A DNA stretch of 42,288 bases, taken from IMG/VR virus record IMGVR_UViG_3300027726_000002. One strand, 5' to 3'. This DNA comes from a virus. The stretch's first letter is position 1, and every line of letters begins with the position of its first letter. The translations under genes and the position numbers were made by a program. This document shows positions 1 through 42,288 of the stretch, one piece after another. The notes under the pieces were generated by a model. That model was not told where the DNA came from. It did no database searches and worked only from the letters and a program-made list of their open reading frames with translations.

Positions 1-127
1 ATGTCCTCCGGCTTCATCGCCTGTCCAGAACCGTGCTTACCGCTTTTCCCGCCTTTTTGCCCATACGGTCCGGGCGTCCCAATCGGCTGTCCCCATTGGT
101 TCATTGTGTTGCTGTAGGTTCCATCAG
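1..127. repeat. Exact 127-bp terminal direct repeat, copy 1 (circular-assembly overlap)
   Basis: Bases 1-127 match 42162-42288 base for base, compared along the whole length. The identity ends at the window edges. 127 nt is a typical maximal assembler k-mer. An ORF also reads straight through the junction. Confidence 0.9.
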
Positions 128-539
128 AATTCTTTTGCGCCGTTTCCAGCACCCCGCCGCTGCGCCAGCCACCATAGTTCCGATCCCAGTACCCGCCTGT
201 ACTTTGCGTTCCGGTTGTACCGCCGGTCGGACTGCCACCCATTGCCATTGGCGGGGGCGTGGTGTTCATATTCCACGGCGAATACCACCCGCTGCCAGGC
301 ACGGTGTAGCGCCAGTAACTACCATCGGCGGATACTTCAATCTGCAATCCAATCCCGGTTGGTTTGGTGGTCTGCCCGGATACACCCGTCCGACCGCCGC
401 CATATTGGATGGGCTGGGGTGGTTTGGCGGGGGTAGATAAGCCTCCTCCACTCGGCCATTGGATTTGTCCCGGTACGGGGGTGGATAAATTATTACTGCC
501 CCACTCAATCGGTTTGGGCCTTCTAGGATCATTTGCCAT
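1..539 (-). CDS. 5' part of a junction-spanning gene (full product 243 aa, Gly/Pro/Thr/Trp-rich, virion-module protein of unknown function)
   Basis: The minus-strand frame starting at ATG 539..537 has no stop down to base 3; I translated it codon by codon. Because 1-127 equals 42162-42288, it continues in frame into ORF 41969..42265 (position 104 corresponds to 42265; 539-104=435=3x145). N-terminus: MANDPRRPKPIEWGSNNLSTPVPGQIQWPSGGGLSTPAKPPQPIQYGGGRTG. It is absent from the ORF track because it runs off the edge. Its start overlaps the end of 529..732 by 11 nt. Confidence 0.75.
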   Translation of the reverse strand, partial: MANDPRRPKPIEWGSNNLSTPVPGQIQWPSGGGLSTPAKPPQPIQYGGGRTGVSGQTTKPTGIGLQIEVSADGSYWRYTVPGSGWYSPWNMNTTPPPMAMGGSPTGGTTGTQSTGGYWDRNYGGWRSGGVLETAQKNSDGTYSNTMNQWGQPIGTPGPYGQKGGKSGKHGSGQAMKPED

Positions 540-732
540 TCAATACCTCCTTGATCTTCCCCTGCGTCTCTGCATCTAATAACGCTCTGGCTTCCGGGGG
601 CATGGTCGCATTCATCATTGCCAGTTTGATCAGTTCATCCGGCATGAAGAAGTCTTCCATCACCTTCCCGATCACCCCATTCACTTCCACTCTGGCGCTC
701 AAATATGCGTTGCGTACAGTTGAAATGTCCAT
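529..732 (-). CDS. Hypothetical 67-aa protein directly after portal
   Basis: Its ATG lies 1 nt after the portal stop (ATGATGTGAGATGGAC). It is packed between the portal and the junction-spanning gene. No motif recognised. Confidence 0.55.
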   Translation of the reverse strand: MDISTVRNAYLSARVEVNGVIGKVMEDFFMPDELIKLAMMNATMPPEARALLDAETQGKIKEVLNGK

Positions 733-22812: not shown

Positions 22813-22840
22813 TTTACAATTATATCAGAATTAATGTTCT

Positions 22841-23041
22841 ATGAATAAGTGGAAATCTTCTTCTCTCGGATTGCTTCTGGGTGTGCTGATGTCAACTTGC
22901 ATCACCATAGGTAACATTATGATTGCCACTGCTCCAGTCTATTTGATAGAGCTGGGGATTAACTTCATCGTCAACATCTGCATCTATGCATTGGTCTTCA
23001 CGCTCCTGGTCACACTTTACCGACGCGTGACAAAGACATGA
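22841..23041 (+). CDS. Small 2-TM membrane protein (lysogeny-module moron; possible superinfection exclusion)
   Basis: LGLLLGVLMSTCITIGNIMIA and INFIVNICIYALVFTLLVTLY. It appears noticeably more AT-rich than its neighbours by eye. It sits between the repressor and attP/int. Confidence 0.55.
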   Translation: MNKWKSSSLGLLLGVLMSTCITIGNIMIATAPVYLIELGINFIVNICIYALVFTLLVTLYRRVTKT

Positions 23042-23136
23042 ATCGCAGTCACCTTACCCGGCCAAAAACAACCACCAACCACGGGCCGCATACCCCCCGC
23101 ATTCAGCCTGGTAACAGCCCCCCGGTTCTCACCGCC

Positions 23137-23191
<55 letters not shown>

Positions 23192-23231
23192 GGAACATCT
23201 TACCACCCACCTGCTTTGGTAAAAGTGGCCT

Positions 23232-28366: not shown

Positions 28367-29164
28367 TCACTCATAATATCCCCCCATGTGCGGGGTCTTC
28401 TGTAAGCCATAGATCGGATAGCGCGCATCCATCAGGGCTTCTTGCGCCAGGGCTTCATTCATCAGTTTGATCAGGTCGGGGCGGTCTTCCCGATATCGTT
28501 GTACCCGCCATCTCAGCGCATGTACCGCCGCTTTCCAGCTTAGCCGGTCAGGGTAGATGTAATTCGAGATCGCGTCTGTGTCCGCTGTAAGCGTGGTGGG
28601 CAATGCCACATGGGTCAGCCTGATTTTGTAATCGGCTTCATCCGGGGCGCGCTCTGTGTCAAATGCAATCGTGGTTCCAATTTGCCGCCAGCCAAAATGC
28701 GGGACGTATTGGTATGGTGCGGTGGTCATCATTGCCACTTCCACTTTCCGTACATCGATCACGCCCGCCGGTAGGGTGTAGGCTTCCTGGTCTGCCACTG
28801 TCACCAAAGTAGCATCTTGCGCCGGTATTCCTCCAATGGCCCTTAACGCTTTATTGATCGCCTGAATCAAAACATACCGGGGGAAGTCTGCATTACAGGA
28901 TGCGTATAGATTACCCGCCGCGTTGACCAGGGTCATGGTGGCAAAGGTGTATGTCCCGGTCGATTTCGCCCAATCGGTGATGACTGCGCTCTTTCCGGCG
29001 TTGTTCCCGCTCAAAGGCCAGATGGTTCCGCCGTTGAAGTAGTCATCCTCTTCAGTGACCCCGGTATCAAGCAGGGTGGTTGCCGATCCCCCGGTGGCTG
29101 TCCCTTCCACCACGCTGGTGATCAGCCGGGCCAGGTCAAGTGTCGCTGATGCTAAGGTTGTCAT
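28367..29164 (-). CDS. Virion structural protein, 265 aa (adaptor/tail-tubular-A-like by position)
   Basis: SD GGGAGAAATATTGCT. It lies immediately upstream of the large tail protein. No motif recognised. Confidence 0.45.
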   Translation of the reverse strand: MTTLASATLDLARLITSVVEGTATGGSATTLLDTGVTEEDDYFNGGTIWPLSGNNAGKSAVITDWAKSTGTYTFATMTLVNAAGNLYASCNADFPRYVLIQAINKALRAIGGIPAQDATLVTVADQEAYTLPAGVIDVRKVEVAMMTTAPYQYVPHFGWRQIGTTIAFDTERAPDEADYKIRLTHVALPTTLTADTDAISNYIYPDRLSWKAAVHALRWRVQRYREDRPDLIKLMNEALAQEALMDARYPIYGLQKTPHMGGYYE

Positions 29165-29783
29165 AGCAATATTTCTCCCAGTCTTTTCTTGTCACAGTTC
29201 CCAAACGAATGTGCGGGATCTCCACGCCGGTATGCACGTACCTTGCAATCCCCGCTTTCTCACATTGCAGGGAGAAGTACCAATCCTCCCCGCCGCGTAC
29301 CACATCATACATTTTCTTCCAGTAGGGTGGTTGCAGTTTGTCGAATACCCAGCGCCGAATCGCTATCGCCCCGGTTCCCACCATGTCCGCCGGGATGATT
29401 TTATTCTCCGGTATCTTGCTCGTTGAGTACCAGAATTCCGGGTCTTCGCTGTCTTTCATGTAAAACGCCGGGCGGCTGTCTTCTCCCCGGCAGAATGCAA
29501 GCGCGGCCACTACCCCATAATCCGGGTGCGGGTCAAGCGCCAGTCTTTCCACCACGTTGGCGGGGTATTTGTGGTCTGCATCCAACATCACCAATGTGTC
29601 ATACGGGTCGCTGGTGCTTTCCATAAACGCTTCCGTAAATTGTTCCCGCGCCCATTCGGTTGCGGTGTGCGGCACGCTGATCCGGGTCCAGTTCTGCGAT
29701 CCGCATCGGGAGGCTACTCCCAATAAGCTGTCTACCGCTTCGTCGTACATGCCTCGTTCGAGGAGGACACCCCAATAGATCAT
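29136..29783 (-). CDS. GT2-like glycosyltransferase
   Basis: TLVMLDADHKYP (DxD-type), GGEDWYFSLQCEKAG (the ED..F motif of GT-A enzymes) and VGTGAIAIRRWVF. The start is taken at ATG 29783; a GTG at 29810 is also possible. Confidence 0.65.
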   Translation of the reverse strand: MIYWGVLLERGMYDEAVDSLLGVASRCGSQNWTRISVPHTATEWAREQFTEAFMESTSDPYDTLVMLDADHKYPANVVERLALDPHPDYGVVAALAFCRGEDSRPAFYMKDSEDPEFWYSTSKIPENKIIPADMVGTGAIAIRRWVFDKLQPPYWKKMYDVVRGGEDWYFSLQCEKAGIARYVHTGVEIPHIRLGTVTRKDWEKYCYDNLSISDT

Positions 29784-29829
29784 TTTTGTTTTCCTATCTC
29801 CGTAAGCCACCGGCCTACCGTGTTCGTCT

Positions 29830-30522
29830 TCAGCCCGCGCCTGTACAGGTAATCGTCCCGCCGCCCAATGCAGGTGGAACCTGGATCACGTTCTTACCCG
29901 TGTACGCATCCAGCCGATAGTAAATGATCATGTCCGGGCTGGTGGTGTTGAGAACGCCGAACAGATCCCCGTTTGCCGCCATCAATGCAAAGCGGGCAAT
30001 GAATGACCGGCTTACTGTGATGTCAATGCTGAAATCAGCCAGGCCTCCCGGCGGTGTGAACGGGATCGGGATGTCAGGCAATACCCCCGCGCTGGTCAAC
30101 ACGTACCCATCCCAGGGGCAGCTGCCCTCATTGCGAATGATGAAATGCAAGCGTTTTATTCTGCCAATTTCCAACGCCCCCGCTTGTAGGTCACTCACTG
30201 GTTGGCTTACCACCCAGGCAATATTGGTACAGGGTGGTGAGGGTATTTCTGTGGGTGTGGCTGTGGATGTGGGTAATAAAGCGTTTTCGATGGGATACTG
30301 CAACGCTTCGGGGGCGGGGGTAGCCGTGACAATCTTCTCAATCACTTGCGTTATAACGCGTTCGACTTCTACCGGCGCTTCCACCACCCGCTCTTGATAC
30401 TGGACTTCCGGCGATGATGTTGGCCATGTGTACCAGACAACTCCGACCGTAGCTGCGCCAATCAAGAGCAGGCATCCGGCCATTGCCATTGATAAGAAAA
30501 CAGTGATGATGGTGTTTTTCAT
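29830..30522 (-). CDS. Membrane-anchored protein with NBR1-like Ig domain
   Basis: N-terminal TM IITVFLSMAMAGCLLLIGAATVGVVWY. The C-terminal domain contains FIIRNEGSCPWDGYVLTSAG, the N-x-G-x-C-x-W motif of N_BRCA1_IG-type Ig domains. ATGA overlap with the upstream glycosyltransferase. Confidence 0.5.
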   Translation of the reverse strand: MKNTIITVFLSMAMAGCLLLIGAATVGVVWYTWPTSSPEVQYQERVVEAPVEVERVITQVIEKIVTATPAPEALQYPIENALLPTSTATPTEIPSPPCTNIAWVVSQPVSDLQAGALEIGRIKRLHFIIRNEGSCPWDGYVLTSAGVLPDIPIPFTPPGGLADFSIDITVSRSFIARFALMAANGDLFGVLNTTSPDMIIYYRLDAYTGKNVIQVPPALGGGTITCTGAG

Positions 30523-32000
30523 ATCTTCACCGCCAACTTTTTCAAATCACTTTTGCTGATAAATCCCCAACTATGCCCCACTTCAATCCGCACATCTTCC
30601 CCAAATACGGTAACACTGATCTGTTTCTCAGAAACTTTTCGCTGTGACTGAAAACTTTCTCTCATGCTGATGTCTTTCGTCCGGTATTCCAGGCTGTCCG
30701 GGCGGGCTTGATACACCCCCATCACCAGGGGCAGGTGGTAGAAGTTCTTTTCCCGCGCACATCTCAACCAGAAGTCATAGTCCATTGCCGATGTCAGGCT
30801 TTCATCGAACCACCCCACCCGCTGATGCAGGGATGCCCGGTATAGTGGTTGTGGGCCAATGAAACAATTCCGCCCCAATGCTTCCCGGCTGTAGTCCGGC
30901 CAGATATATACCCCCGGTTGGCCTTCGTGTCTTCCCCCCACCACCTCCGGGTTATTGGCTACAAAAGTATCATATGGGATGTTTGGCTCCCAACTGACGA
31001 ACACATCCGCATAGACCAAATCAATGTCTGGTCTGCCATCCATGAAGTCCGCCATGATCCCCAATGTGTTCTTCTTCAGCCGGTCGTCTGTGCAGGCGGG
31101 GATGATGTACTTCCCCCGTGCTTTCTTTGCGCCCAGGTTCCAGGCGGTTGCCAGGTTGGGGACATCCGGGGTGGTGATGAGCTGCTCCACCTTCCATGCC
31201 TTTGCCACTTCCTCTTCCATCCCCCCTTTTTGGCAAACGACCACGATCTCAATCGGTTCGCTCTGGTTGCGCAAATCGCGCAAACATTCCTCAATATAGG
31301 GTTCTGCATAATAGGCGGATACCACCGCGCTCACCCGGTATCGTGGCCCCAGAACATGCGCCATGGGCAGCACGGGGAATATTTCTAATTCCGTTTTCTC
31401 CGAGCAATTGATAATATGCCGTCCATGCTTCTGATAATAATTGCTGGCTAAGCTGTAAGCCAGTTCGCTCATTCTCAAATCGGGGGTGTGCCACTCGTAC
31501 CCCGTGAAGTAGTCCGGGTGGAAATGTACCCGGTCTTCGCCTTCGAATACTTCCCGTTCGTTCGGGCTTCCGGTGTCCCCGTAGTCGTGGTCTACCCCCA
31601 GCAGGATCACCTGTTCAAATCCCATGTAGAATGCCAGTTGCAGGGCGACATAGGTGACGGTATACCCCTCCCAAATGGCTTTTTCGGGGGAGTAAAAGCC
31701 GGGGTTCGCTTCTCCGGTATCCAGGGTGATGACTTTCCCCCTTTGGTTTTGGACCACCCCCCTGCCACTTAGAAACTTATCGCAGTCAAGGTTCCCGATC
31801 TCGTCCCCGAATTGGTTGAGTACCAGGCTGTTGACACATACGTAATAATCCGGGGTATATCCTGAAAGATATATCCTGTTTGTTCCGAACACAAGTTCGC
31901 CATTCAACTGGCTGAAGTCAAAACCCTTCAGGGATGGGCCATTTCCGAGGATAAAGCATCTGCCCCGGTGAATGTTTTTGTAGTCGGTGATGTATTGCAT
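30519..32000 (-). CDS. Two-domain glycosyltransferase: MptE/Maf/sialyltransferase-like (DUF115) N-domain plus GT2 C-domain
   Basis: The N-domain has CFILGNGPSLKGFDF, YVALQLAFYMGFEQVILLGVDHDY and VHFHPDYF. These compare with the GNGPSL and G(I/V)D signatures of Maf/Cst-type nonulosonic-acid transferases. The C-domain has VSAVVSAYYAEPYIEECLRDL and YIIPACTDDR (GT2). The start is taken at ATG 32000 (MQYITDY) with SD AAGAAAGAGGACA. Confidence 0.65.
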   Translation of the reverse strand: MQYITDYKNIHRGRCFILGNGPSLKGFDFSQLNGELVFGTNRIYLSGYTPDYYVCVNSLVLNQFGDEIGNLDCDKFLSGRGVVQNQRGKVITLDTGEANPGFYSPEKAIWEGYTVTYVALQLAFYMGFEQVILLGVDHDYGDTGSPNEREVFEGEDRVHFHPDYFTGYEWHTPDLRMSELAYSLASNYYQKHGRHIINCSEKTELEIFPVLPMAHVLGPRYRVSAVVSAYYAEPYIEECLRDLRNQSEPIEIVVVCQKGGMEEEVAKAWKVEQLITTPDVPNLATAWNLGAKKARGKYIIPACTDDRLKKNTLGIMADFMDGRPDIDLVYADVFVSWEPNIPYDTFVANNPEVVGGRHEGQPGVYIWPDYSREALGRNCFIGPQPLYRASLHQRVGWFDESLTSAMDYDFWLRCAREKNFYHLPLVMGVYQARPDSLEYRTKDISMRESFQSQRKVSEKQISVTVFGEDVRIEVGHSWGFISKSDLKKLAVKI

Positions 32001-32013
32001 TGTCCTCTTTCTT

Positions 32014-32048
32014 ATCAAAATAGCCCGCCCACTAGATAGCAGGCGGGC
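32014..32048 (-). terminator. Rho-independent terminator after the capsid gene set
   Basis: The minus strand reads GCCCGCC, a 12-nt loop and GGCGGGC, followed by TATTTTGAT. The hairpin (32023-32048) starts 26 nt after the stop of 32075..32431. Confidence 0.6.
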
Positions 32049-32074: not shown

Positions 32075-32431
32075 TTAGAACTTGGTATATTCGCCGCCAA
32101 GTTCAGGGTAAACCGAGTAGGTGAAGTTGGGCGATGTGCCAGCCAGGGTGGAGTAGTACCGGCGATAGCGGGCGTCAGATTTGCCCGTCACGCGGTGGAT
32201 CCCCGCGGCAGTGGTCAGGGTCGGGAAGCTAACAAAGTCCCGCCAGGTCGAGTTGTTGTCGCTCTCCTGGATTTTGACGGCTAACGTTCCAGTTGCGCCG
32301 GTGAGGGTGGTGCAGTTCAACACATACGTGATCGGGTTGACATCCGCTCCGCCGAAATCAACGCCGGTTGCGCTGGTGACGCTGGAGGTTTGCGCTCCAG
32401 AGGTTTTAAGCACGAGATTTGCATCTAACAT
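32075..32431 (-). CDS. Ser/Thr-rich 118-aa beta protein directly after the major capsid gene (decoration protein candidate)
   Basis: The start is taken at ATG 32431 with SD GGAGGATGAA; the MCP stop lies inside this SD. S/T-rich tracts: KTSGAQTSSVTSATG, TTLTGATGT, PTLTTAAG, STLAGTSPNFTYS. Confidence 0.55.
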   Translation of the reverse strand: MLDANLVLKTSGAQTSSVTSATGVDFGGADVNPITYVLNCTTLTGATGTLAVKIQESDNNSTWRDFVSFPTLTTAAGIHRVTGKSDARYRRYYSTLAGTSPNFTYSVYPELGGEYTKF

Positions 32432-32441
32432 TTCATCCTCC

Positions 32442-33422
32442 TTACGCGGCCACGATGCCATGAATGCGGCCAACCGAGAACGGCGAGACCATGTAGATGC
32501 CGGGCGTCCAGTCAATCGTCACCCGGTAGGCGTTCCCAGCTTGCAGCAGGCCGATGTCCTGAACATCAATCGGGTAGACCTGGAAACCGTTAACGTATTC
32601 TCCGCCGTATTTTACGGAGTAAATCGAGCTACATGCTCCGCCGGTAAGAGCAGTTCCATCAGCCAATTCAGCCACACCCAACACCTGGGCGGTCAAATCC
32701 AGCGGGTCAGTTACCCCCGCTTCCATGATCTTCGGGCCGCCTTCGCCAAACGTGGCAAACGTGCGACCATAGCTGTCGGTCGTGGTTCCCAACATGCCGG
32801 ATTGGCGCATGGCCGATTCAAAGCGCAGTTTCAGGGTGCGCCCCATATAGAGAATATCCGGCCCGCCATCGCCGTGACCGGTGACATCCATCAGTTGATG
32901 GACGTAATCGACCAGTTTGATTTTGTCAGCCGCCAGGGTTGCGCTGTCCGGGGAGATGTCAATACTCCCGGCTGCAATAGACTGCGCCGAGGGCAGGTAG
33001 TTGACCAGTCGATACCACAACCCGGTTAAAGAGTCGTAATCGCTGGTCGGTGTGCCGTTGAAGAAGACGTTGTTGAAATACGCGCCCATGGCCTTGGTGA
33101 ACATCGAGACTTGCAGCGCCTTCTGATCCACCTGCGTTTTGGCTTTCATCAGGGTCTTGTCGATGTCGATGTATCCACCGAAGTTGATGATCCGGTCTTT
33201 CACCGGTTCAATCTGGCCTTTGCTCTCGGTGAACGTGCCGCCAATTTTGCGGCTGTACACGGTCGGCAGGCTCTTGGTGCGCAAGAGTTCAATGTCAAGC
33301 GTGCCTTCGTCACTGAATGAAAGGCTGTCCAGGATGGGCGATGCCATCCGCAGAATGTCAATCACGCCCGCCTTCAGCGGAGATTCCGCCAGTCGTGCGT
33401 AATCGGCTAAAGTATATGCCAT
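32442..33422 (-). CDS. Major capsid protein (HK97-fold type, putative)
   Basis: 326 aa, immediately after the scaffold gene, with SD GGAGGGTAACAAC. The N-terminal pattern LADYARLAESPLKAGVIDILRMASPILDSLSF...LPTVYSRKIG is typical of capsid families. The gene is bracketed by an internal promoter and a terminator. Confidence 0.7.
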   Translation of the reverse strand: MAYTLADYARLAESPLKAGVIDILRMASPILDSLSFSDEGTLDIELLRTKSLPTVYSRKIGGTFTESKGQIEPVKDRIINFGGYIDIDKTLMKAKTQVDQKALQVSMFTKAMGAYFNNVFFNGTPTSDYDSLTGLWYRLVNYLPSAQSIAAGSIDISPDSATLAADKIKLVDYVHQLMDVTGHGDGGPDILYMGRTLKLRFESAMRQSGMLGTTTDSYGRTFATFGEGGPKIMEAGVTDPLDLTAQVLGVAELADGTALTGGACSSIYSVKYGGEYVNGFQVYPIDVQDIGLLQAGNAYRVTIDWTPGIYMVSPFSVGRIHGIVAA

Positions 33423-33447: not shown

Positions 33448-34089
33448 TCAGAGACCTTTCGATCTGAAATGTTCAGATATCAGGTCCAACCCGCTTTTGC
33501 CTGAGTATGGTGATGTCGGCCCGCCCGCCCCAGATAATCCGGGGGTGCTGGTCGCATCTTTCACGGGGGATTTTTCACGCGCTTTCTTGACTTCAATGGC
33601 AGCCGGCAATGATTTGAGGAATTTGTAGGGGTCGCTCATGTCAATGAGTTTCGCTTCCGGGTCATTATCGTAGATGACCACCCCAGCCTCATCCATCATT
33701 TGCTGCGCCACTTTGGTAATCGGATCGACCAATGAGGGGTCTGTCAGTGTGGACGGTGGTTGGCCTTCCCCCGCCGCTGAGTTTTCCTCGGTAAGAACCT
33801 GGTCAGTAACTTGCTGCTCCAGCGCCGCTTTCTGATTTCCATCCAGCGTCACGCCTGCTTTGGTAAGCTGCTGTTCAAGTTTTGTTACCTCGCTCCGAAT
33901 GCGTGTGTTTGTTTTTGTGATCAGACCTTGCGCCCGGCGGAATGCTTTTTCTTCTGCTTCTCCCACCAGTTTTAAGACTTCATCACGGGTGACTGTCGGT
34001 TGAGTTGCAGCCTCGCTCTGTCCCGTTGCCGGGGGAGTACCCGTTTGGCCTGCGGGCGGTGCAACAACTTTCAATTCTTGCCCTTCCAT
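33448..34089 (-). CDS. Scaffolding protein
   Basis: 213 aa, acidic, with long coiled-coil heptads (EEKAFRRAQGLITKTNTRIRSEVTKLEQQLTKAG). It is immediately upstream of the capsid gene and has the strong SD GAAGGAGGATT. Confidence 0.65.
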   Translation of the reverse strand: MEGQELKVVAPPAGQTGTPPATGQSEAATQPTVTRDEVLKLVGEAEEKAFRRAQGLITKTNTRIRSEVTKLEQQLTKAGVTLDGNQKAALEQQVTDQVLTEENSAAGEGQPPSTLTDPSLVDPITKVAQQMMDEAGVVIYDNDPEAKLIDMSDPYKFLKSLPAAIEVKKAREKSPVKDATSTPGLSGAGGPTSPYSGKSGLDLISEHFRSKGL

Positions 34090-34105
34090 AATCCTCCTTC
34101 ATCCG

Positions 34106-34154
34106 ATTAATCAGATTAATGCTATTATACAACAATCGCTTGTAAATTACAAGT
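34106..34154 (-). promoter_or_regulatory. Internal capsid promoter P-late2: same palindrome/-35/-10/ATTAAT architecture as P-late1
   Basis: The minus strand reads ACTTGTAATTTACAAG-CGATTGTTG-TATAAT-AGC-ATTAAT-CTG-ATTAAT. The -35 TTGTAA is plus 34147-34152, the spacer is 17 nt and the -10 is plus 34124-34129. The palindrome begins at the last base of the giant-ORF stop codon. Confidence 0.55.
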
Positions 34155-37100
34155 TATTGCTGATAAGAAAATAGTTCCAATACCTGCGCCAACCACGCGT
34201 CATAGGGCAGGCCGCTCTTTTCCTTTTTCCACAGGGAGTAGAGTTCTGCCCGCGCGCCTTCGCCCAGCGGTTTGCCGGTCAGGGTGTGGGCGAATAGTTC
34301 TGTGCTGACATATCCATCGAACAGGTTGCTATCCACCCGGTATCCGGCGGTGTAGTCATCTCCCAATACTGCCTTTGCTATCGTGTCGCTGCTCTTGACA
34401 TGGGGGATAATTTCCGGTGATTGCGCCAGCCGTGCTTTCTGCCAGTCCCAGTATTGCCGTAATTCCGGGTGGTCCAACAGGTAGGCTTTGCGAGCTGCCC
34501 CGGTCAATGAATAATACTTGTCCTGGGTCAGTCCGATCTTGGGGAAGTATTGGGCTTTCTCACCTTTGTATGCGTACACCTGCGTCAAGATTTCTTCCGG
34601 GACGCCGGATAAGCGGCTCTCTTCTCCGATCATATACGGGATCAGGTCGGGGTTTTCTGCGATGAACATATCCCGCCATTCCTGGTATTCGGTCAGCATG
34701 GGGTTATTCTGTCTGAACTGATCTTGCATGGCCGGGGGCAGTTTGTAGTACATGCTCTGGATCAGGTCGATATTCGGGAATTGTGTCTTGCGAGTTTCCA
34801 GGTAGGTGCTGTATGCTCCGCTTTCGGCCTGGCCGGGCAGTTCCAAACTCCCTTGTGGCACGGCGGGGGCGGTGTCTGGCACTTTGCCGCCTAATAGCTG
34901 CGTCCATTCCGTGATCGTTGCCAAATCAATTGCATCGTAAGAGCGGGTTTCTTTATTCAGGAACGCTTCCTGGAACAGTTCTCCCAGTTGGTCGGTCGCT
35001 TCCCGTCGTTCCAGTTCGCTCAGGCCATTGTAGGCGTCCCAGATGGATCCAATCAGGTAGCGTTTCACCCGTTCTTCCGGGTCGTCCCAGTTGGTGAGCA
35101 TCATCCGGGCTTCGTATTCCGGGTTGGCGTCAAAGAATTCTGCCACTGTCCCGTTTTCTATCGCCTGGCTGAATTCCTGTTGCAGTATCCGCTGTTCTTG
35201 TTCGCCTTCCGGGAACAAGTCAAGTGATAGGGTGGCAGTATACGACTTGACCGCCGCTTGCTTTCCCGTCCGGCTCATCGCTTCCTGCCACAATTCCCCC
35301 TGCTGGTCTACCATTGCCAGCATCACCTCTTCTATGTTCGCTTCCCCGTTTGCGACCATGTTCGATAATTCCCGTTCGATGTAGTAATTGAACAGGAACC
35401 CGCGCTCCGGCGCGCCGAGGGCTTTCTGTAACCACCCACCCGCATTCACTCCGCCGGGGGTAAAAAAGCTGGTGATGTTGGTGACGGCTTGCAGAGAAGG
35501 CGGGGCTTTGATCTTGCTTTCCCGCCCCATGATTTTCTGGTAGGCAACTTGCAGCGGCCAGCTAAACCCGCTCATGGTGTTCACCAGGTCAATCGGGTTG
35601 GCGATCTCCGCTTCCACTTCCATCTGCGCCTGGGTGATGGCTTTCTCCCATATCGGGCCGGCTTTGTTGTTCAGGGCTTCGCTCATCTGCGCCTGGGTGA
35701 TCTGCCCGTCTTCCGCCATTTGTCGAATCAGGAATTGCGCCTTACTGATCCGGTTGGCTTCATCCTGTTGCAGTGGTCGCATGGTCTGATTCAACATCTG
35801 TTCAAAGCTAAACATCCGTTTGAGCGGGTCAACGTAGATGGTATTCCCCCACCCTTCCGGCAACCACGGGAATGGGATAGACATCTTGCCGCGCAATCGC
35901 GCCGGGAACCCGGGCATCTGTTTGCTCATCCGCTCCTGGGCGTCTCTTATCCGGCTGTATTGGGAGAGATAAGCGGGGTGATCAATCGCCCGCATCGCCC
36001 ATTCCATCGCGCTCCGGGTAAACCAGAACTGATAGGGGAAGACGATCCCCGCTATGTTGTCCGCGCCATAGCGTTTGGTGTAGTCGAGCAGGGCAATGTC
36101 CCGGTTTACTTTTGCGTATCGTGTAGCTGTCAGTTTGGCGTCTGTCAGTTTGGCGTATTGTGTTTCGAGATATCTTCTTACCTCCTTCACCTGTTCTGGG
36201 GATAGGTTGGCGTCTTTCAAATTCACGGCATTGCCGGTGTCGCCCTTCATCCGTCCCTGCATGGTGTCAATCAAATGATAGATGGTTTCGTTCCATCCGC
36301 TTTCGAAGAGTTTCCCGATGTCCTGGGGGTATAGTCCGGTGACGGTTCCGGGGGGAGCGTCACCAACAGGGTTGGGGTTGGGGTTTGCCGTTTCGCTGAC
36401 TTCCCCGCCCCATTCCTCCACTTTCGCTTGTATCGTTTCCCGTTCCAGTTCTTCAATCCGCCCGGCCATCTCCTCTAATGTTGGCTCTTCCAGAAGTGCG
36501 AATGGTGCGGGGGTGATTGGTTCTTCAATGGTCACTTCTTCAATGGGTGGGGGTTGGGTCGCTTCCACCTGTGGCGCTTCTACCTTTGGCGGGGTGGGCT
36601 GCGAATACTTCGCCGCCAGGTCTGGGTAGTCTGCCAGCACTTCAGCAGGAACGGGCTTGCCTTCGGAGAGGGCGCGCTCAACAAATGCTGCGTGAAGCTC
36701 GAATAAATCATCTGCGCTAATACCGTTCAGGTATTCTGAGCTGTAATTCCCCATAGGCGTTGCTTTGCCGCTATTTACATCAATAAACCACTTCTTCCCG
36801 TACTTTTGAAACGTATCAACTAGATAGGGGAATTCTTCTCTTGAATAGATTCTTGTTTCGCCATCAATTATTTCGACGGGAGTATATAACTTGTAGAACT
36901 TCTCAGAAGTTAAAGCATGCGGATCAATTGAGTTGAATAATTGTCTGTAGTATTGCGACATAGCCCAATCAAATACAGCTCGTTCGGTAAACTCGATGTC
37001 ATCCCCAAAATATTTCTTTTGGAGATTTTTTATATTATTTGTGATTTCACCTTTCGACATTTCAAGTAACTGTTCTATGCTTAATAGATCGTTACTTTCA

Positions 37101-40100
37101 GCCAATCTATCGGCAAATGGTTTTACATAGTCATCATAAACAGGGCTAAAAGTTTTTGTTGATGACCCACTAGCCGCCGCCTGCTCCGGCATCTCAGCCG
37201 CCCGCTCTGCTTCCACCTGTGGCTGGGTGGCTTCAGTCTGCAAAAATGGAATTGAATCATCAACAACCACCTCTGGTTGGGGAGGTTGCTTCTTCGCTTG
37301 CATCTCATCCATGATGTCCAACAGACGAGCAAATCCCTCCTCCGATCCAGCCAGCTTAACCATTTCATCATAGGGCATGGGCGTGCCGTTCGCTTCGTAC
37401 AAGTCCATCCACTGTACTAATGCATCCGCCGCCCCTTCCATATCGCCTAAAAACGTCAGGATTTTGGGGTCTGGGGGAGTTTGCCCGGCAAGTTCACTTT
37501 CAGCGCCATTTATCAAACGATCAAGTAACAGGTCTTTGACTTCTCGCACATTCTTATAGCGAACGTCATCCTTCCCCTTGTCCTCAATGATCCGCTCCAG
37601 GGCTGTGTAAACCGCTTTCTTGTTCAGCTTCTTATCGAAGTACAGGTCTCGATACCATTGCGCATTTGTTGATGGCTGCCCCGTGACAATGGGCTGGCTC
37701 TGGTAGTCCACCCAAGTGAATACCCGCTTGCCCGCTTCGCCTTGTTTGAGTTCTTCCAACATCATCTCGGCTTCTGCTTTTACTGCTTCCGAGATTTCCG
37801 GTGGCATTTCTCCGCGGGTCTGGTCGAATAGTTCCTCGCGTTTGATGGCGAATTCTGACTTTGGTGGCTCCACGGCTGGCGTCTCTACCACTCTTGCCGC
37901 TTCCATCTCCACCCGCGGTGCTTTCGCTTTTGCTCTTTCTTCAAACGCCTGCCGCACCTGATCCGGCGATAAGTCTGCAACCCGACTCGTGTCTGTACCA
38001 AGATACTTATTTACCGTAGCAAGTAAATGTCTATCAAATCCGGGGTCAGGTGATCCGTCTGCCTTCGCGCTTGCCAATCCATACTCACTGGCAATCTGCC
38101 GTATCTGGTTGACTGTACCCATCTCATCCGGGGTCAGGCCGTGTTTCTTCACCACCACATCAGCCCGGGCCTGCTCCAACCACTCCGCCCTCGCAGTGCT
38201 TACAATCTCTTCCGCGCTCTTGATGGGGGCGGGGGCTTCTTTCGGGGTGGCTGCGCTTGCCAGTTTATAAACCTCATGCGCGCCGGTGATGTTCTGATGC
38301 ATCCGTTCCACAATGGCGGGCTTGTATTCCTCGGTCAGAAACTTGTCCCACGCTGCCCGCTTTTCTTCGGGCTTCTTGATCTGGTCAACTTCTTCCCGGT
38401 GCGCCAACATTCTCTGGGTCATGTCCTCCCGGATATTTGCCACGCCTTCCCGCCAGGTCTGGGCAATCTTGCTTACCTCCGGCCCATACCACGCTTCCAG
38501 CGTCTTCACCAGTTCTGCATCCAGCTTGCGTTGCAATTCCAGTTCAACCCTGGTGGCGTCCTGGAATGCCGCCCGCACTTTCGCCCGCACTTCATCCCGC
38601 ACAATTGCCCATTCGGGGGTGTCCTTAGATTTCTTGGCGTCTTTCCACAAGTCCCATTTCAGCTTATGGAATTCAGACCAGTTCTTTTCCTGGTCGATCA
38701 GGTTGAGTTCCAGGGTCTTGGCGTATTGTCCATCAATCCCCAGTTGTTCGGTGATCCCCACGTAATTTGCCCGGCGTCTCTTCCAGCTTCGTTTGTGCGC
38801 CGCATCGGATAGGCTGCGCTGGTTCTTCAACATCCGCCCAAACTCTTCCGGGGTCATCATGTCTTGCAGTTCGTACACCCGCTCCCAACCATCATACCCG
38901 CCAATGTGGGTGGTGGCCTCGTCCAGGGCGGCTTCATCGTACAGGTCAACGATCCCCAGCGGGCCTTCGGTCTTGGCGATGTTCGCCGCTTTCTCGGCTT
39001 CGGCTTTTATTCTCAGGTCTGTCCATTCGTCCATCTTTTCCGAGATGTGATTCGCCAGTCCTGCAAATGCTTTGTCGATGTCTGCATCGGTGGCATTTTC
39101 CGGGATGTTGTCTTTCAGGTAGTCATACGCCCCGGTTTTCTGCATGGCATCCCGCGCCATCGCATCATCCACGCCCAGGGTTTCGGACGCTTCTCCGAGG
39201 ATTTCATCAACCGTCTTTTTTCCGGCTGCTTCCCAGATGCTTTTTTCAATCTGCGCTTTGCTTACCCCGCTGGCAATCTTGCGCTCGATCACCTTCGCCA
39301 GTCCGGGCTGAATGCCATCCAGCGATCTTTCCAGGCCGGGGGGTATCCGGTCAAATCCCTTCCCAGGTCGCCACAGGTAGTTCATCGCCTGTCTTACGCC
39401 ATGATACATGGCCGTGTCGGTTGACCACCCTTCCAGTTTGGAGGACGCGTTGGAGAATAACCCGAATCTGCGTCGGCCAGAGCGTACCAGTTTATTAAAG
39501 TCCTCCAGTTTTCCGGGCTGTACCCCGGCTTCGTCAATTGCGCCTTTGACGTTCTTCTCCCGGCTGATAAACGTCTCTTCCATCCGGGGGGATTTAACCC
39601 CAAACTCTGACCAGAACGCATCCCGCCGCCCTTTGGTATCGAAGTCCAATACACCTTCATAGGCCAGCTTGACGATGTTATCCATCCCGTTTTCAAACAG
39701 GTAATTCGGGGATCCGTCCAGCATAAAGATGCCCTGGACGTTCTTCACGGTGTTGCTCATGCGGATTGTCCAGTGGTCGGGCTTCACCCCAAAATATTCC
39801 GCCGTCCATTTCTCGATGTGATCCATCATGCCGGTATAGTATCGCCCCATGAATTCGCTCTCAGTCAGCGGGGCTTTGTCTTTCAAATACGTTTTGGCAA
39901 AGTCCTGCAAGGTCTTTCCACTGAAGTCGCCTGCATCAAACGCCTGGACGATTGTACTTGCAGCTTCATCCCCCGATTGGCGGGCGGCTTCTACAAACTG
40001 TTTTGCCAGGATGTCCGATTCTTTTCCGCTTACATCGTCCAGCGATTTCAACACATCATCAATACTTCGCCCACTTACCTTCGCAACTTTCGCAAGGATG

Positions 40101-41956
40101 TCTCTGGACCATGCCCGCTTGCTCCACACTTCCACCAGTGCTTTTCCTTTGGGCGACCAGTCCCGCAATGCAACCGGCAGGGCTGCGGCTTCACTCCCGC
40201 CCAATGTGCGCATCCCGATTTCAGCAATCACGCGCGGGTCATTGTTGGCAATCCCGTCCACAAACTTCTGCATGGTCACGGGGTCATATCCCGCCCGGTC
40301 TAACACGCCGGTCAGGTTCGTTCCCATTCCGTCCACCACTTCAATCGCCCGCGCTTTCGGTTCCAACGTGGTCATGTAGCCCCAGGCTGCTTCCAGTTTG
40401 TTGTTATAAACCGGCTTCTCCAGGCTCTTCGCTTTCCCTTCGGGTGTCCAGGGGGATAACCACCGTTCGATGCTGTTCAGGTGGATGTCTTTGGGTTGGG
40501 TAAGTTTCGCTGCTTCTTTGTACGTTCGCATTCCGTGAATTAGCCCGGACGAGCTGTCCAATGCGTTCACAAAGTCAGCCGTAAAGCCGGTCGCTTTTGC
40601 CAGCTTCGCCCCCGTTTTTGAAAGCCCCACTCCCGCAAAGTTAAGCGGGTCTGCCAGCATGGTTCCGAATAACTCCCGCATTTCACCTTCAAAGCCATAC
40701 CGTTTCTGGTAGTCGGTAAACACGCTTTCCATACTCTCGCCGCCAACCACCCGATCAAACGCCTCGGTAAGCGCCTGGTATCCCATCTCCGACTCTGCCA
40801 GTTCGCGCACTTCGGTGGTTCCCATCGTCCAGGCGGTTTCCGGTTGGCCTTTGTTTTTGGCTGCGACAATCGCCCACGGGTTTCCTTCCAGGTAGGGTGC
40901 GGCTTTCTCGATCCCGCCCATCACCCAATCAGGAATATCCATCCCAAGTTTTTCGAATTGTTCTGCCAGTATTTTCGCCTGCTCTGCGCCAAACCGGACC
41001 ACAAACGCTTGCGGGGTGACGGTGGTCGCGGCTGCTTTCAGGATTTCCTCATTGGGTAATACCCGGTAGGCCAACTGCGATACATCCCACGCCGCCCCCA
41101 GGTTGTCCATCAATTCGGTGATCAGGGGTAGTCCTGTCTCTCCGGTGATTGCCTTCTCCGTTGATCCCAATGCGGATAGTCCAGCAAGTCCGGCCATTCC
41201 CCCTACTCGTTTGGTGAATTCTGCGCCAACGTTCAATAGCATCAACGCCTTTACCACAACATTGGTCTTATTTGGATCCCAATATGTTTCGGATGCCTGC
41301 GCCGCGCCGGGGTATTGCCCCGCGTAGGTGGGGGAGGCGGGGGCGTCTGTTGCTTTTCCCAATACTCCACCCAATACACCACCCAGAATTACTCCCGGTA
41401 CACCACCCTGCAATCCCGCTATTGCTCCCTGAGCTGCGCCGGCAGTTGCGCCCGTGCTAAATATCCGGGTCATCCATTGCTGGAAAGTTGACAGGCTATC
41501 CCATTGCTCTTGTGGCATCCCAAATGTGCTGTAGTTGCCCTGCATTGGGGTGGTTTCCGCGCCGGGGACGGTGATCTGTTCCACCTGGTTGGGGGTCTGA
41601 ATATCCATATCCTCCGGGGGAATAGATAATGCTTTCAGGAAGTCCCATACCGGGTCATCCACACCGGGGGTCTTGTCCCATGCCGTCCAGGATTTCCCGT
41701 CGTTCAATCGGCTCATGTAGTCATAAGCCAGGGTCAATCCTTCGGTGTCCAGCCATTCCGGGGCCATTTCATCCGGGGCCATGCTGGATACTGTCTCGTA
41801 CCACTTCCCCAGGTTCTCCGGCTTTGCCCAATATTCGCGGTTCGCCCCGCCCTCGATCACGCTGCCTACATCTGCGCCGGGTTGGTAGTCCTGAATAAAT
41901 TGTTCAATAGAAACGGATTGCCCGCTTCCCTCTGCCTCAATGGGTTGAAAGGTCAT
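34154..41956 (-). CDS. Giant 2600-aa virion-module protein (candidate internal core / ejection protein)
   Basis: A single uninterrupted 7803-nt ORF (18.5% of the genome) between the portal-side small genes and the scaffold. It has a glycine-zipper hydrophobic segment at residues ~165-200 (GATAGAAQGAIAGLQGGVPGVILGGVLGGVLGK) and long helical, acidic and Pro-rich linker regions. Two ~50-aa repeats lie near the C-terminus. No catalytic motif recognised by eye. Confidence 0.8.
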   Translation of the reverse strand: MTFQPIEAEGSGQSVSIEQFIQDYQPGADVGSVIEGGANREYWAKPENLGKWYETVSSMAPDEMAPEWLDTEGLTLAYDYMSRLNDGKSWTAWDKTPGVDDPVWDFLKALSIPPEDMDIQTPNQVEQITVPGAETTPMQGNYSTFGMPQEQWDSLSTFQQWMTRIFSTGATAGAAQGAIAGLQGGVPGVILGGVLGGVLGKATDAPASPTYAGQYPGAAQASETYWDPNKTNVVVKALMLLNVGAEFTKRVGGMAGLAGLSALGSTEKAITGETGLPLITELMDNLGAAWDVSQLAYRVLPNEEILKAAATTVTPQAFVVRFGAEQAKILAEQFEKLGMDIPDWVMGGIEKAAPYLEGNPWAIVAAKNKGQPETAWTMGTTEVRELAESEMGYQALTEAFDRVVGGESMESVFTDYQKRYGFEGEMRELFGTMLADPLNFAGVGLSKTGAKLAKATGFTADFVNALDSSSGLIHGMRTYKEAAKLTQPKDIHLNSIERWLSPWTPEGKAKSLEKPVYNNKLEAAWGYMTTLEPKARAIEVVDGMGTNLTGVLDRAGYDPVTMQKFVDGIANNDPRVIAEIGMRTLGGSEAAALPVALRDWSPKGKALVEVWSKRAWSRDILAKVAKVSGRSIDDVLKSLDDVSGKESDILAKQFVEAARQSGDEAASTIVQAFDAGDFSGKTLQDFAKTYLKDKAPLTESEFMGRYYTGMMDHIEKWTAEYFGVKPDHWTIRMSNTVKNVQGIFMLDGSPNYLFENGMDNIVKLAYEGVLDFDTKGRRDAFWSEFGVKSPRMEETFISREKNVKGAIDEAGVQPGKLEDFNKLVRSGRRRFGLFSNASSKLEGWSTDTAMYHGVRQAMNYLWRPGKGFDRIPPGLERSLDGIQPGLAKVIERKIASGVSKAQIEKSIWEAAGKKTVDEILGEASETLGVDDAMARDAMQKTGAYDYLKDNIPENATDADIDKAFAGLANHISEKMDEWTDLRIKAEAEKAANIAKTEGPLGIVDLYDEAALDEATTHIGGYDGWERVYELQDMMTPEEFGRMLKNQRSLSDAAHKRSWKRRRANYVGITEQLGIDGQYAKTLELNLIDQEKNWSEFHKLKWDLWKDAKKSKDTPEWAIVRDEVRAKVRAAFQDATRVELELQRKLDAELVKTLEAWYGPEVSKIAQTWREGVANIREDMTQRMLAHREEVDQIKKPEEKRAAWDKFLTEEYKPAIVERMHQNITGAHEVYKLASAATPKEAPAPIKSAEEIVSTARAEWLEQARADVVVKKHGLTPDEMGTVNQIRQIASEYGLASAKADGSPDPGFDRHLLATVNKYLGTDTSRVADLSPDQVRQAFEERAKAKAPRVEMEAARVVETPAVEPPKSEFAIKREELFDQTRGEMPPEISEAVKAEAEMMLEELKQGEAGKRVFTWVDYQSQPIVTGQPSTNAQWYRDLYFDKKLNKKAVYTALERIIEDKGKDDVRYKNVREVKDLLLDRLINGAESELAGQTPPDPKILTFLGDMEGAADALVQWMDLYEANGTPMPYDEMVKLAGSEEGFARLLDIMDEMQAKKQPPQPEVVVDDSIPFLQTEATQPQVEAERAAEMPEQAAASGSSTKTFSPVYDDYVKPFADRLAESNDLLSIEQLLEMSKGEITNNIKNLQKKYFGDDIEFTERAVFDWAMSQYYRQLFNSIDPHALTSEKFYKLYTPVEIIDGETRIYSREEFPYLVDTFQKYGKKWFIDVNSGKATPMGNYSSEYLNGISADDLFELHAAFVERALSEGKPVPAEVLADYPDLAAKYSQPTPPKVEAPQVEATQPPPIEEVTIEEPITPAPFALLEEPTLEEMAGRIEELERETIQAKVEEWGGEVSETANPNPNPVGDAPPGTVTGLYPQDIGKLFESGWNETIYHLIDTMQGRMKGDTGNAVNLKDANLSPEQVKEVRRYLETQYAKLTDAKLTATRYAKVNRDIALLDYTKRYGADNIAGIVFPYQFWFTRSAMEWAMRAIDHPAYLSQYSRIRDAQERMSKQMPGFPARLRGKMSIPFPWLPEGWGNTIYVDPLKRMFSFEQMLNQTMRPLQQDEANRISKAQFLIRQMAEDGQITQAQMSEALNNKAGPIWEKAITQAQMEVEAEIANPIDLVNTMSGFSWPLQVAYQKIMGRESKIKAPPSLQAVTNITSFFTPGGVNAGGWLQKALGAPERGFLFNYYIERELSNMVANGEANIEEVMLAMVDQQGELWQEAMSRTGKQAAVKSYTATLSLDLFPEGEQEQRILQQEFSQAIENGTVAEFFDANPEYEARMMLTNWDDPEERVKRYLIGSIWDAYNGLSELERREATDQLGELFQEAFLNKETRSYDAIDLATITEWTQLLGGKVPDTAPAVPQGSLELPGQAESGAYSTYLETRKTQFPNIDLIQSMYYKLPPAMQDQFRQNNPMLTEYQEWRDMFIAENPDLIPYMIGEESRLSGVPEEILTQVYAYKGEKAQYFPKIGLTQDKYYSLTGAARKAYLLDHPELRQYWDWQKARLAQSPEIIPHVKSSDTIAKAVLGDDYTAGYRVDSNLFDGYVSTELFAHTLTGKPLGEGARAELYSLWKKEKSGLPYDAWLAQVLELFSYQQ

Positions 41957-41968
41957 ATCACCCGCCCT

Positions 41969-42288
41969 TTATGGGTTCCAGCGTACAATTGATCCAGCAA
42001 CGCCGGATTGTGTGCCTGCGCTGCTATCTCCACCATGAAACTTCTGTAGCATGTAGTTGAGCGCCGCTATTCTATATTGCGCTCTGTCTTTGTTGAGTTT
42101 GCCGCTGGCAATCCCCTGTTCCATCTGCGAGATTTGCGCCTGTATTTTCTCTACCGATGGGATGTCCTCCGGCTTCATCGCCTGTCCAGAACCGTGCTTA
42201 CCGCTTTTCCCGCCTTTTTGCCCATACGGTCCGGGCGTCCCAATCGGCTGTCCCCATTGGTTCATTGTGTTGCTGTAGGTTCCATCAG
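41969..42288 (-). CDS. 3' part of the junction-spanning 243-aa gene (see 1..539)
   Basis: The frame is open from 42288 down to the TAA at 41969-41971. The track ORF (42265 start) is only the last 98 codons. C-terminal sequence: ...SVEKIQAQISQMEQGIASGKLNKDRAQYRIAALNYMLQKF. Confidence 0.75.
   Translation of the reverse strand, partial: DGTYSNTMNQWGQPIGTPGPYGQKGGKSGKHGSGQAMKPEDIPSVEKIQAQISQMEQGIASGKLNKDRAQYRIAALNYMLQKFHGGDSSAGTQSGVAGSIVRWNP
42162..42288. repeat. Exact 127-bp terminal direct repeat, copy 2
   Basis: Identical to 1-127. Confidence 0.9.

Follow-up and report, generated by a model that had tools for sequence, protein, structure and literature searches.

A giant cysteine-free protein of an uncultivated podovirus-like phage: a probable head-packaged, ejected polyvalent-type protein on a new two-part chassis

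The subject of this study is a giant open reading frame (ORF) of 2600 amino acids (aa) identified in IMGVR_UViG_3300027726_000002, a viral DNA record of IMG/VR comprising 42,288 nucleotides (nt), which at its full length is referred to below as the window. We propose that the encoded protein is probably packaged in the phage head and ejected at infection, and that it represents a polyvalent-type protein built on a new two-part chassis. This interpretation is based on the wall hydrolases and domains of injected effectors present in its homologues, on the conserved place of its gene in the head module and on the exclusion of cysteine from its sequence. The specific roles proposed below for its glycine zipper and for its two conserved parts (the N and C modules) are considerably less certain than the packaging and ejection themselves. 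The family to which the protein belongs was previously unannotated, and both modules lie outside any Pfam or PHROG family.

A family of giant proteins with a conserved chassis and one variable slot

A preliminary description of the window had reported this ORF, together with its 18.5% share of the genome; the coordinates proved exact, the gene being located on the minus strand (Table 1). The encoded protein (290.7 kDa, pI 4.8) contains no cysteine, and its gene occupies 18.45% of the window or 18.5% of the circular genome of 42,161 bp. Positions 1-127 of the window are an exact copy of positions 42162-42288; this 127-bp terminal direct repeat indicates that the window is a circularly closed, complete assembly of the latter size. 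The region 33900-42200 was matched with 0 substitutions and 0 indels by a 42,165-bp contig from a freshwater sediment run (2017) and, again with 0 substitutions and 0 indels, by a 27.8-kb contig from a soil run (2024). These two independent, identical public assemblies rule out an assembly artefact or chimera as the source of the giant ORF, and they place the phage in both soil and freshwater-sediment metagenomes.

A search of a large protein database initially yielded 14 relatives, all of them giants (2,014-5,560 aa), and an exhaustive HMMER search with residues 1261-1860 added many more. Markers of both the N and the C module are present in 36 of the 82 fetched proteins of at least 1,900 aa. 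The family thus has at least 36 members, which range from 1,900 to 5,560 aa and originate from ~40-kb uncultivated podovirus-like phages. The comparison with giant ORFs of related uncultivated phages, suggested in the preliminary description, revealed a shared chassis with one slot.

The N module is 57-60% identical to that of the nearest relatives (P0002 and P0003) and 22-30% identical to those of distant members (BLAST map and alignment), and its invariant columns include D436, P437, N439, N756, G768, E842 and W862. The respective values for the C module are 62-66% and 26-43%, and this module contains the motifs PYQFWYTRS, GFPxRLxGK...PFLPEW, FPEGE and NKETRSYD. In pairwise maps, the central region of the giant has nothing in common with P0002 and P0003, which carry GGDEF-type cassettes where the window phage has its own. 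The presence of such a cassette on a chassis of ~60% identity indicates that the slot is exchanged between phages. The stretch between the modules can also be very long: in P0014 (5,343 aa) and P0015 (5,560 aa), ~3,400 residues, holding a Sno/DarB-type helicase and ddrB-ParB, separate the same N and C modules. The gene of P0014, ~16 kb in length, would fill ~39% of its 41.3-kb contig, which is possibly partial. When 50,697 phage records were searched by tblastn, neither the N module nor the central region found a match, and for the C module the matches were confined to five copies of a single uncultured "Podoviridae sp." genome.

The domains detected in family members are ART-PolyVal, GGDEF, RadC, PBECR5, LPD22, the Sno/DarB-type helicase, ddrB-ParB, SLT and M23; the Sno-type helicase (PF13871, PF13872) was found in P0014, P0015 and one A5 member. 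The placement of SLT, M23, ART and GGDEF was mapped, and it follows a simple rule. SLT was located after the C module in all four cases (P0009, P0010, P0048, P0067) and M23 was N-terminal in both of its cases (P0011, P0012). All eight ART matches (in seven proteins) and all four GGDEF matches, in contrast, fall between the modules. Enzymes acting on cytoplasmic substrates (NAD+, GTP) are thus central, whereas wall-cutting enzymes are placed at the ends.

The preliminary description had found no enzymatic domain in the protein. Motif and profile scans support this statement for the window protein, but it does not extend to the family, whose members carry enzymes. It had also regarded a DarB-type helicase/methylase assignment as a sign of a non-virion function. 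Profile searches of the window protein gave no such methylase-helicase assignment, nor one to a polymerase, and the reasoning itself proved mistaken, since P0014 and P0015 carry a helicase of this type between the same modules. By the account of Iyer, Burroughs, Anand, de Souza and Aravind (2017; PMC5512222), DarB-type helicase/methylase modules are head-packaged, injected proteins, so that the occurrence of Sno/DarB-type helicase and ddrB-ParB domains in the family supports delivery by the virion.

Exclusion of cysteine

Not one of the 2600 residues of the giant is a cysteine, compared with a mean of 0.99% in the other 30 tabulated proteins of the genome (P ~5e-12). This feature is family-wide: 28 giants together contain 3 cysteines in 82,158 residues, while the portal-position proteins of the same phage clade contain 0.48%. 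Established and proposed ejection proteins have a similar composition, with no cysteine in SU10 gp20-24 (2,956 residues), T7 gp15 and gp16 (2,065) or N4 gp50-52 (4,294), and two in the phi24B giant (2,807), against 0.56-0.84% in the portals of these phages. The giant therefore shares a compositional hallmark of proteins that cross the portal and tail channel.

By analogy with other secretion substrates, which are translocated unfolded, we infer that the lack of cysteine may keep disulfide or metal cross-links from forming while the protein unfolds, passes the channel and refolds. Term counts in papers on ejection proteins revealed no such role of cysteine, the single mention in the SU10 paper referring to mass-spectrometry methods. 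A near-zero cysteine content in a long protein of the structural module may serve as a cheap predictor of injected proteins in metagenomic phages.

The composition also bears on a quite different explanation, namely that the giant is a non-virion protein encoded in a late operon, acting inside the cell in anti-defence or superinfection exclusion, or as an assembly factor or a scaffold that resembles an inner body and is degraded during maturation. This would agree with the absence of homology to known virion proteins, and PMC5512222 allows that polyvalent proteins may also act against competing elements. The exclusion of cysteine throughout the family would then be unexplained, as the cytoplasmic proteins of this phage contain 1-2% of this residue; fusions with SLT and M23 make sense only for entry from outside; and the position in the head module is strictly conserved. 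We consider an intracellular role very improbable.

Conserved place in the head module

The giant gene lies just upstream of the scaffold-like and capsid genes in all related contigs examined, and synteny with the window was seen in 8 related loci. The late gene order, (TerL, portal-position gene)-small gene(s)-giant-scaffold-major capsid protein-adaptor-~900-aa tail protein-112-aa protein, is shared by L001, L002/MW202608, L003, L005, L007, L010 and L011. The neighbours named in the preliminary description were recovered, with a 67-aa and a 243-aa gene before the giant and a scaffold-like and a capsid gene after it, the capsid protein being confirmed by profiles (Table 1). TerL and TerS are both encoded in the window.

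No tube, sheath, tape-measure, chaperone-frameshift, terminator or baseplate genes were found in the genome. Taken together with the SU10-type adaptor and the relatives deposited as "Podoviridae sp.", this points to a short-tailed virion, and it agrees with the earlier observation that candidates for a sheath, tube and tape measure are lacking.

These data are relevant to the question of whether the giant might be a tape-measure-like tail protein of an unrecognised long-tailed phage. It is all-alpha and very long, PF20155 (TMP_3) is weakly matched at the equivalent position of the C module (E 0.34 in the giant, E 0.0015 in P0003), and its best, non-significant BFVD matches include tape measures and minor tail proteins. 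All of these matches remain below curated thresholds (for PF20155, 11 bits in the giant against a cut-off of 41), and the gene resides in the head module of a genome with an SU10-type adaptor, no detected tail-tube apparatus and relatives deposited as Podoviridae. Moreover, lengths of 1,900-5,560 aa with enzymatic inserts misfit a ruler. Tape measures scale at ~1.5 Angstrom per residue, and 2600 aa would imply a tail of ~390 nm. The doubt about a tape-measure role expressed in the preliminary description was well founded, and such a role appears hardly credible.

The central cassette

The slot of the window protein holds three elements, domain X, domain Y and a 27-aa motif, bounded by Pro/Glu linkers (Table 1), and the cassette has no identifiable activity. 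Domain X is common to dozens of other giants of 2,000-5,400 aa, in which it occupies the same relative position (BLAST matches include P0004 and P0010), and it is absent from P0002 and P0003. No Pfam or fold match was found for domain Y. Residues 1651-1804 are 45% identical to P0016, and no further match is listed for the N-terminal portion of the domain.

The motif that follows conforms to the pattern H-x3-V-x2-AL-x-EGKPVPxEVLxDYPDL and is modelled by AlphaFold2 (AF2) as a helix-loop-helix, with a predicted local distance difference test score (pLDDT) of 73-81. A regular-expression count revealed it in 101 of 162 fetched proteins (137-4,800 aa), frequently with 2-6 copies in tandem. As most of the 162 came from a query that itself includes the motif, the count shows the spread of the motif and not its general frequency. 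Other giants bearing it carry ART-PolyVal (6 of 15), as well as ddrB-ParB, SLT, Zeta toxin, RadC and LPD38. The motif overlaps weak DUF433 matches in P0016 and P0018, has no counterpart in Pfam, and a search of the accessible literature for it brought up nothing of relevance. A search of annotated phages found none, the only matches being weak ones in Sno-domain proteins of Xanthomonas plasmids. Conceivably, the motif marks a site of docking, processing or release that closes a cargo unit.

The content of the slot is important in judging whether the giant is only a structural ejectosome or core protein, i.e. a fused equivalent of T7 gp15 and gp16 or of N4 gp51, with a centre serving as a spacer and with the effectors of relatives as secondary additions. 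The window protein has no recognisable catalytic domain, and conservation falls on its two helical modules and its glycine zipper. Hydrolases at the termini of relatives have counterparts in T7 gp16 and SU10 gp20 (PMC8954989, PMC9509320), and the trio of a small, a medium and a giant gene is reminiscent of N4 gp52/gp51/gp50. On the other hand, the slot is filled in every member examined, here with the predicted folded domains X and Y and the conserved motif, and there is no homology to the conduit proteins of T7, N4 or SU10. A purely structural role is, in our opinion, unlikely; the two possibilities are not exclusive, as N4 gp50 is both a membrane anchor and an enzyme carrier.

Sequence features and predicted structure

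The acidic, helical character noted in the preliminary description is reflected in the pI of 4.8 and in the models, which are almost purely alpha-helical, and the Pro/Glu-rich linkers it mentioned are present at residues 1556-1600 and 1782-1869. The glycine-zipper segment that it had pointed out was likewise confirmed. A hydropathy scan identified this segment as the sole hydrophobic one of the giant. It is kept in 11 of 12 aligned homologues, with G184, G185, G188 and G196 conserved in at least 90%, and it gave a weak match to phrog_18476 (E 0.005).

AF2 models were obtained for residues 1-1200 and 1401-2600 from 14-15 sequences (pLDDT 63 and 62, predicted template modelling score 0.34 and 0.35, respectively). 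Confidence is low at the glycine zipper and in the linkers, and the end of the C module (residues ~2300-2600) forms a confidently predicted array of helical repeats.

The structure search proposed in the preliminary description gave no significant match in PDB or BFVD: Foldseek found nothing at E <=0.001 against PDB (both models) or BFVD (C-terminal model only), and the PDB search produced no match at E <0.9. The best BFVD matches (tape measures, minor tail proteins and a T7 gp16-like "protein inside capsid D") had E values of 0.025-0.06 and probabilities of <=0.15, and were considered uninformative. Comparison of the giant with Pfam (E up to 1), PHROGs, NCBIfam and PDB sequences revealed nothing above noise, and HExxH and GGDEF motifs are absent from it. 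The C-module profile matched only a Fab among PDB sequences, which is spurious. A Walker-A-like AGDFSGKT at residue 675 was also rejected, as its GK is present in only 2 of 12 aligned members (P0001, P0006), and chance alone would yield ~0.2 strings of this kind.

Table 1. Positions in the window of the parts of the giant ORF, of its neighbours and of other features discussed in the text
Feature	Position	Strand	Remarks
Giant ORF	34154..41956	-	ATG start, 2600 aa, 7803 nt; polyvalent-type protein, predicted to be packaged in the head and ejected
N-terminal chassis module, aa 1-1360	37877..41956	-	all alpha-helical, family-wide
Glycine zipper GATAGAAQGAIAGLQGGVPGVILGGVLGGVLGKA, aa 166-202	41351..41461	-	candidate membrane-insertion hairpin
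Five very long predicted helices (34-73 residues each), aa 957-1199	38360..39088	-	bundled; AF2, block pLDDT ~70-89
Domain X, aa ~1376-1555	37292..37831	-	optional helical module
Second Pro/Glu-rich linker, aa 1556-1600	37157-37291	-	from composition
Domain Y, aa ~1601-1753	36698..37156	-	small alpha+beta predicted cargo domain; AF2 pLDDT 50-80
27-aa motif HAAFVERALSEGKPVPAEVLADYPDLAA, aa 1754-1781	36614..36697	-	recurrent in polyvalent-type proteins, unannotated
Pro/Glu-rich linker, aa 1782-1869	36350..36613	-	joins cargo slot to C module; AF2 pLDDT <50
C-terminal chassis module, aa 1870-2600	34157..36349	-	most conserved part
67-aa cysteine-free gene	529..732	-	between portal-position gene and 243-aa gene
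243-aa gene, C-terminal part	41969..42288	-	candidate partner protein; spans circular junction
243-aa gene, N-terminal part	1..539	-	start codon 537-539
Portal-position protein, 556 aa	734..2404	-	label from size and from place directly after TerL in relatives
Scaffold-like protein, 213 aa, acidic	33448..34089	-	directly downstream of giant; label positional
Major capsid protein	32442..33422	-	phrog_212 E 3e-35; PF20911 E 1e-11
SU10-type head-to-tail adaptor	28367..29164	-	PF24175 (SU10_adaptor) E 2e-10; 42% identity to L001 adaptor
Four unannotated ORFs	2380-4747	-	131, 220, 133 and 298 aa
Prim-Pol and D5-type primase-helicase, 673 aa	9641-11662	-	
Low-GC island	21000-24194	+	small island ending in integrase
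Tyrosine integrase	23232-24194	+	
M23 peptidoglycan endopeptidase	24191-24733	-	stand-alone; end of tail module
Glycosyltransferase island	29136-32018	-	inside structural module
146-aa ORF	32075-32515	-	just after capsid gene

Proposed mechanism and its weighing

The concentration of 18.5% of a 42-kb genome in one gene raises the problem of how its product is packed in the capsid and threaded through the tail. In the mechanism that we propose, a few loosely folded copies would be incorporated in the procapsid. At 291 kDa, each copy would take up ~350 nm3 (partial-volume estimate), which is small relative to a capsid holding 42 kb. At infection the protein would leave by way of the portal and the short tail, either before the DNA or with it. 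Wall hydrolases, where present, would act first; the window phage has a separate M23 gene. The glycine zipper might then insert into the host membrane and anchor or gate a channel, while the helical N and C modules may act as an elongated body, able to refold, that travels through the tail and helps to build a conduit across the envelope. Finally, the central cassette would reach the cytoplasm as an early effector.

Several observations weigh against packaging and ejection of the giant. The presence of any family member in virions is a prediction from architecture, context and composition, and sequence and fold comparisons link the giant neither to a characterised ejection protein nor to a MuF domain. 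The negative fold search is itself weak, given models of moderate quality. The term polyvalent applies to the family as a whole, as neither a catalytic nor a wall-degrading domain can be recognised in the window member. In T7, SU10, N4 and phi24B the ejection genes are situated after the tail genes and not between portal and scaffold, and neither a maturation protease (i.e. a processing enzyme) nor further ejection genes were found among the remaining ORFs of the head module. The cysteine signal is strong mainly by virtue of the length of the giant, since small non-ejection proteins of this phage (such as TerS and the scaffold) also have no cysteine. Finally, 5 of the 10 bins of metagenome-assembled genomes (MAGs) that contain relatives are labelled Chloroflexota, whose envelope may need no trans-periplasmic conduit.

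A more far-reaching version of the proposal can be advanced only tentatively: the N and C modules might constitute a dedicated delivery chassis with one recombination-prone slot for almost any cysteine-free enzyme, the 27-aa motif might be a general signal of injected polyvalent proteins, and domain Y might be a new early effector. If our reading is correct, the family would show unusually cleanly how short-tailed phages deliver protein plus DNA and how close relatives swap early effectors, such as GGDEF and ART-PolyVal, in one slot. It would also yield a catalogue of candidate enzymes with which uncultivated phages of soil and sediment may counter defences and take over the host. Two targets that merit study are domain Y and the motif GKPVP...DYPDL.

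Neighbouring genes and other features of the genome

The stop codon of the 243-aa gene lies 13 nt ahead of the ATG of the giant. The 243-aa protein consists of 17.7% Gly and 9.5% Pro, is rich in Ser, and contains 11 Trp and no cysteine. A Gly/aromatic-rich gene precedes the giant in every relative (229 aa in L001, 79 aa in L003, 461 aa in MW202608), and the 461-aa version carries a "lysin motif" annotation in its record; the similarity among these genes, including that of the window, is weak. The Gly-rich upstream proteins share hydrophobic/aromatic tails, …SIVRWNP in the window (41969-42000), and …LVNWRIGI and …LVSWRF in L002 and L003. The aromatic tails and the LysM (peptidoglycan-binding) annotation hint at an envelope-directed partner protein. 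The 67-aa gene has a counterpart in one relative, L001 (33% identity). The preliminary description had suggested that the three genes form an ejectosome. This finds partial support in the maintenance of the 67-aa gene in L001 and in the constant presence, before the giant, of a Gly/aromatic-rich gene of low sequence similarity.

The labels "portal" and "scaffold" are inferences from position, and both genes are conserved in relatives. The portal-position protein is 33% identical to the genes that follow TerL in L001 and L003 and has at least 162 unannotated homologues. It found no match in Pfam, PHROGs, NCBIfam or PDB (phmmer), its 29-sequence profile none in PDB, and a hidden Markov model (HMM) of it none among the portals of T7, SU10 and phi24B. 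In the window, four unannotated ORFs separate TerL from the portal-position gene, unlike L001 and L003, where the two genes are adjacent or one small ORF apart. The scaffold-like protein is ~30% identical to its positional counterparts in L005, L006, L007 and L011, and neither a profile nor a solved structure matched it.

Besides two functionally uncharacterised PHROGs, the 146-aa ORF just after the capsid gene matched phrog_9522 "major tail protein" (E 3e-10). This tail assignment is questionable, as the ORF occupies the same place as the SU10 Ig-like protein and the "head decoration protein" of MW202608. Between the capsid-proximal genes and the adaptor lies a glycosyltransferase island encoding a 499-aa protein with GT2 and MptE-like domains, a 230-aa protein whose N-terminal part includes a hydrophobic stretch, and a 224-aa protein that is 37% identical to the product of an L003 gene just upstream of a Glycos_transf_2 gene. 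Similar sugar/methyl-transfer islands are present in L003 (GT2, methyltransferases, TOD1_MUCI70) and L004 (NeuB, methyltransferase). The island suggests glycosylation of the virion. The M23 endopeptidase at the end of the tail module may be an endolysin or a virion-associated lysin.

Nearly all genes are located on the minus strand, apart from those of the small island that ends in the integrase gene. The GC content of this island is ~0.48, in comparison with ~0.54 elsewhere, and it is probably a lysogeny module. The Prim-Pol/D5-type primase-helicase is the only recognisable replication enzyme. Since neither a DNA nor an RNA polymerase was seen, the phage presumably depends on those of its host.

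Relatives were identified in ten MAG contigs. In one of them, a 326-kb Chloroflexia MAG contig (L009, positions 134-11467), the giant appears split into frames of 2,755 and 696 aa with a gap of ~1 kb. This locus is probably an integrated prophage, and the split could be due to decay or insertion. For the identity of the host, this contig offers the best lead.

Comparison with known systems

HMMs of the N and C modules revealed no homology to T7 gp13-16 (<=1.3 bits), SU10 gp20-24, N4 gp50-52 or the phi24B giant, and such comparisons place the protein in no characterised family of ejection proteins. Its likeness to known systems, discussed below, is therefore one of architecture, composition and context.

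The minor head proteins SPP1 gp7 and Mu F, together with MuF-fused toxins, are similar to the giant in the location of their genes, after the portal region and before the scaffold, and in the concept of a head-internal effector carrier (PMC5512222). They differ in carrying PF04233, which was undetected in the giant at E up to 1; no match was found for the fold of the giant, which is ~8-fold larger. The N6A-methylase and superfamily 2 helicase dyad of P1 DarB is absent from the window protein.

Ejection proteins have been described as a "conformational gymnast" (review PMC8954989). The long helices, the acidic all-alpha character and the disordered linkers of the giant resemble the proteins discussed in that review, as well as the beads-on-a-string arrangement thought to apply to N4 (PMC13434306). 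T7 gp14-16 and SU10 gp20-24 are all-alpha, head-internal proteins of short-tailed phages, of which gp15, gp16 and gp20-24 are also devoid of cysteine. Both sets include one lytic transglycosylase protein (PMC8954989, PMC9509320), which is paralleled by SLT in P0009, P0010, P0048 and P0067. The T7 set unites membrane-insertion segments with a peptidoglycan hydrolase; the giant has the one conserved glycine zipper and no hydrolase, SLT or M23 being fused to it in relatives and M23 encoded separately in the window. In T7 and SU10 the set is divided over several proteins (200-1,470 aa) whose genes lie behind the tail genes, and none of which has a swappable effector slot. In particular, the three T7 genes follow those of the tail tube, while the trio of 67, 243 and 2600 aa in the window is located between the portal-position gene and the scaffold. 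The preliminary description had compared the giant to these internal ejection proteins. The ejection component of that idea is strengthened by the hydrolases and effectors of the homologues, by synteny and by the exclusion of cysteine; a conduit of the T7 gp14-16 type alone is not, given the lack of T7 homology, and the polyvalent modular effector carrier of PMC5512222 provides a better frame.

The same study predicts that polyvalent proteins are carried in the capsid and injected alongside the DNA. Like them, the giant is very large, comprises several domains and has its gene among the late genes of the virion, and the same domain repertoire occurs in its relatives; the neighbourhood of late and virion genes and the portal-terminase packaging that characterise them were both found for the giant. 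MuF, MPTase, ArdC-N, LPDs and ART were, however, undetected in the window protein (Pfam, E up to 1), and ART-PolyVal and LPD22 are found in homologues sharing the chassis instead. Likewise, the combination of disparate activities in one polypeptide is seen across the family, whereas the window protein has no recognisable catalytic domain. The regularity observed here, a single cargo slot with terminal hydrolases, is not described in the available part of PMC5512222.

A polyvalent protein of particular interest is phi24B gp47 (vb_24B_48; 2807-2811 aa), which is abundant in virion proteomics and absent from the cryo-electron microscopy map, and which its authors propose to be an encapsidated ejection protein (bioRxiv 10.64898/2026.04.10.717836). 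Like the giant, it is the single giant of its phage (a short-tailed temperate Stx phage) and is nearly free of cysteine. The two differ in sequence (HMM scores <=1 bit, tblastn negative) and in gene location, that of gp47 being at the far late end, after the tail genes; gp47 also carries LPD1, LPD5, LPD38 and MuF-C, all absent from the giant, and lacks the GKPVP motif.

The virion RNA polymerase of N4 (gp50, 3500 aa) has a membrane-associated N-terminal part and loosely linked domains, and brings enzymatic cargo to the cytoplasm; according to the model proposed for it, it is packaged in a beads-on-a-string form and refolds once ejected (PMC13434306). The N4 cluster gp52/gp51/gp50 is, like that of the window, a series of a small, a medium and a giant gene, all encoding cysteine-free proteins. 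The giant differs in matching no RNA polymerase family (its HMM against gp50 gave <=2.7 bits), its partners have 67 and 243 aa instead of 150 and 644 aa, and the gene location is not the same. The 243-aa partner is a Gly/Pro-rich low-complexity protein, in contrast to the helical tunnel protein of N4. Among known systems, N4 gp50 with gp51 and gp52, on the one hand, and phi24B gp47, on the other, are the closest working analogues of the giant.

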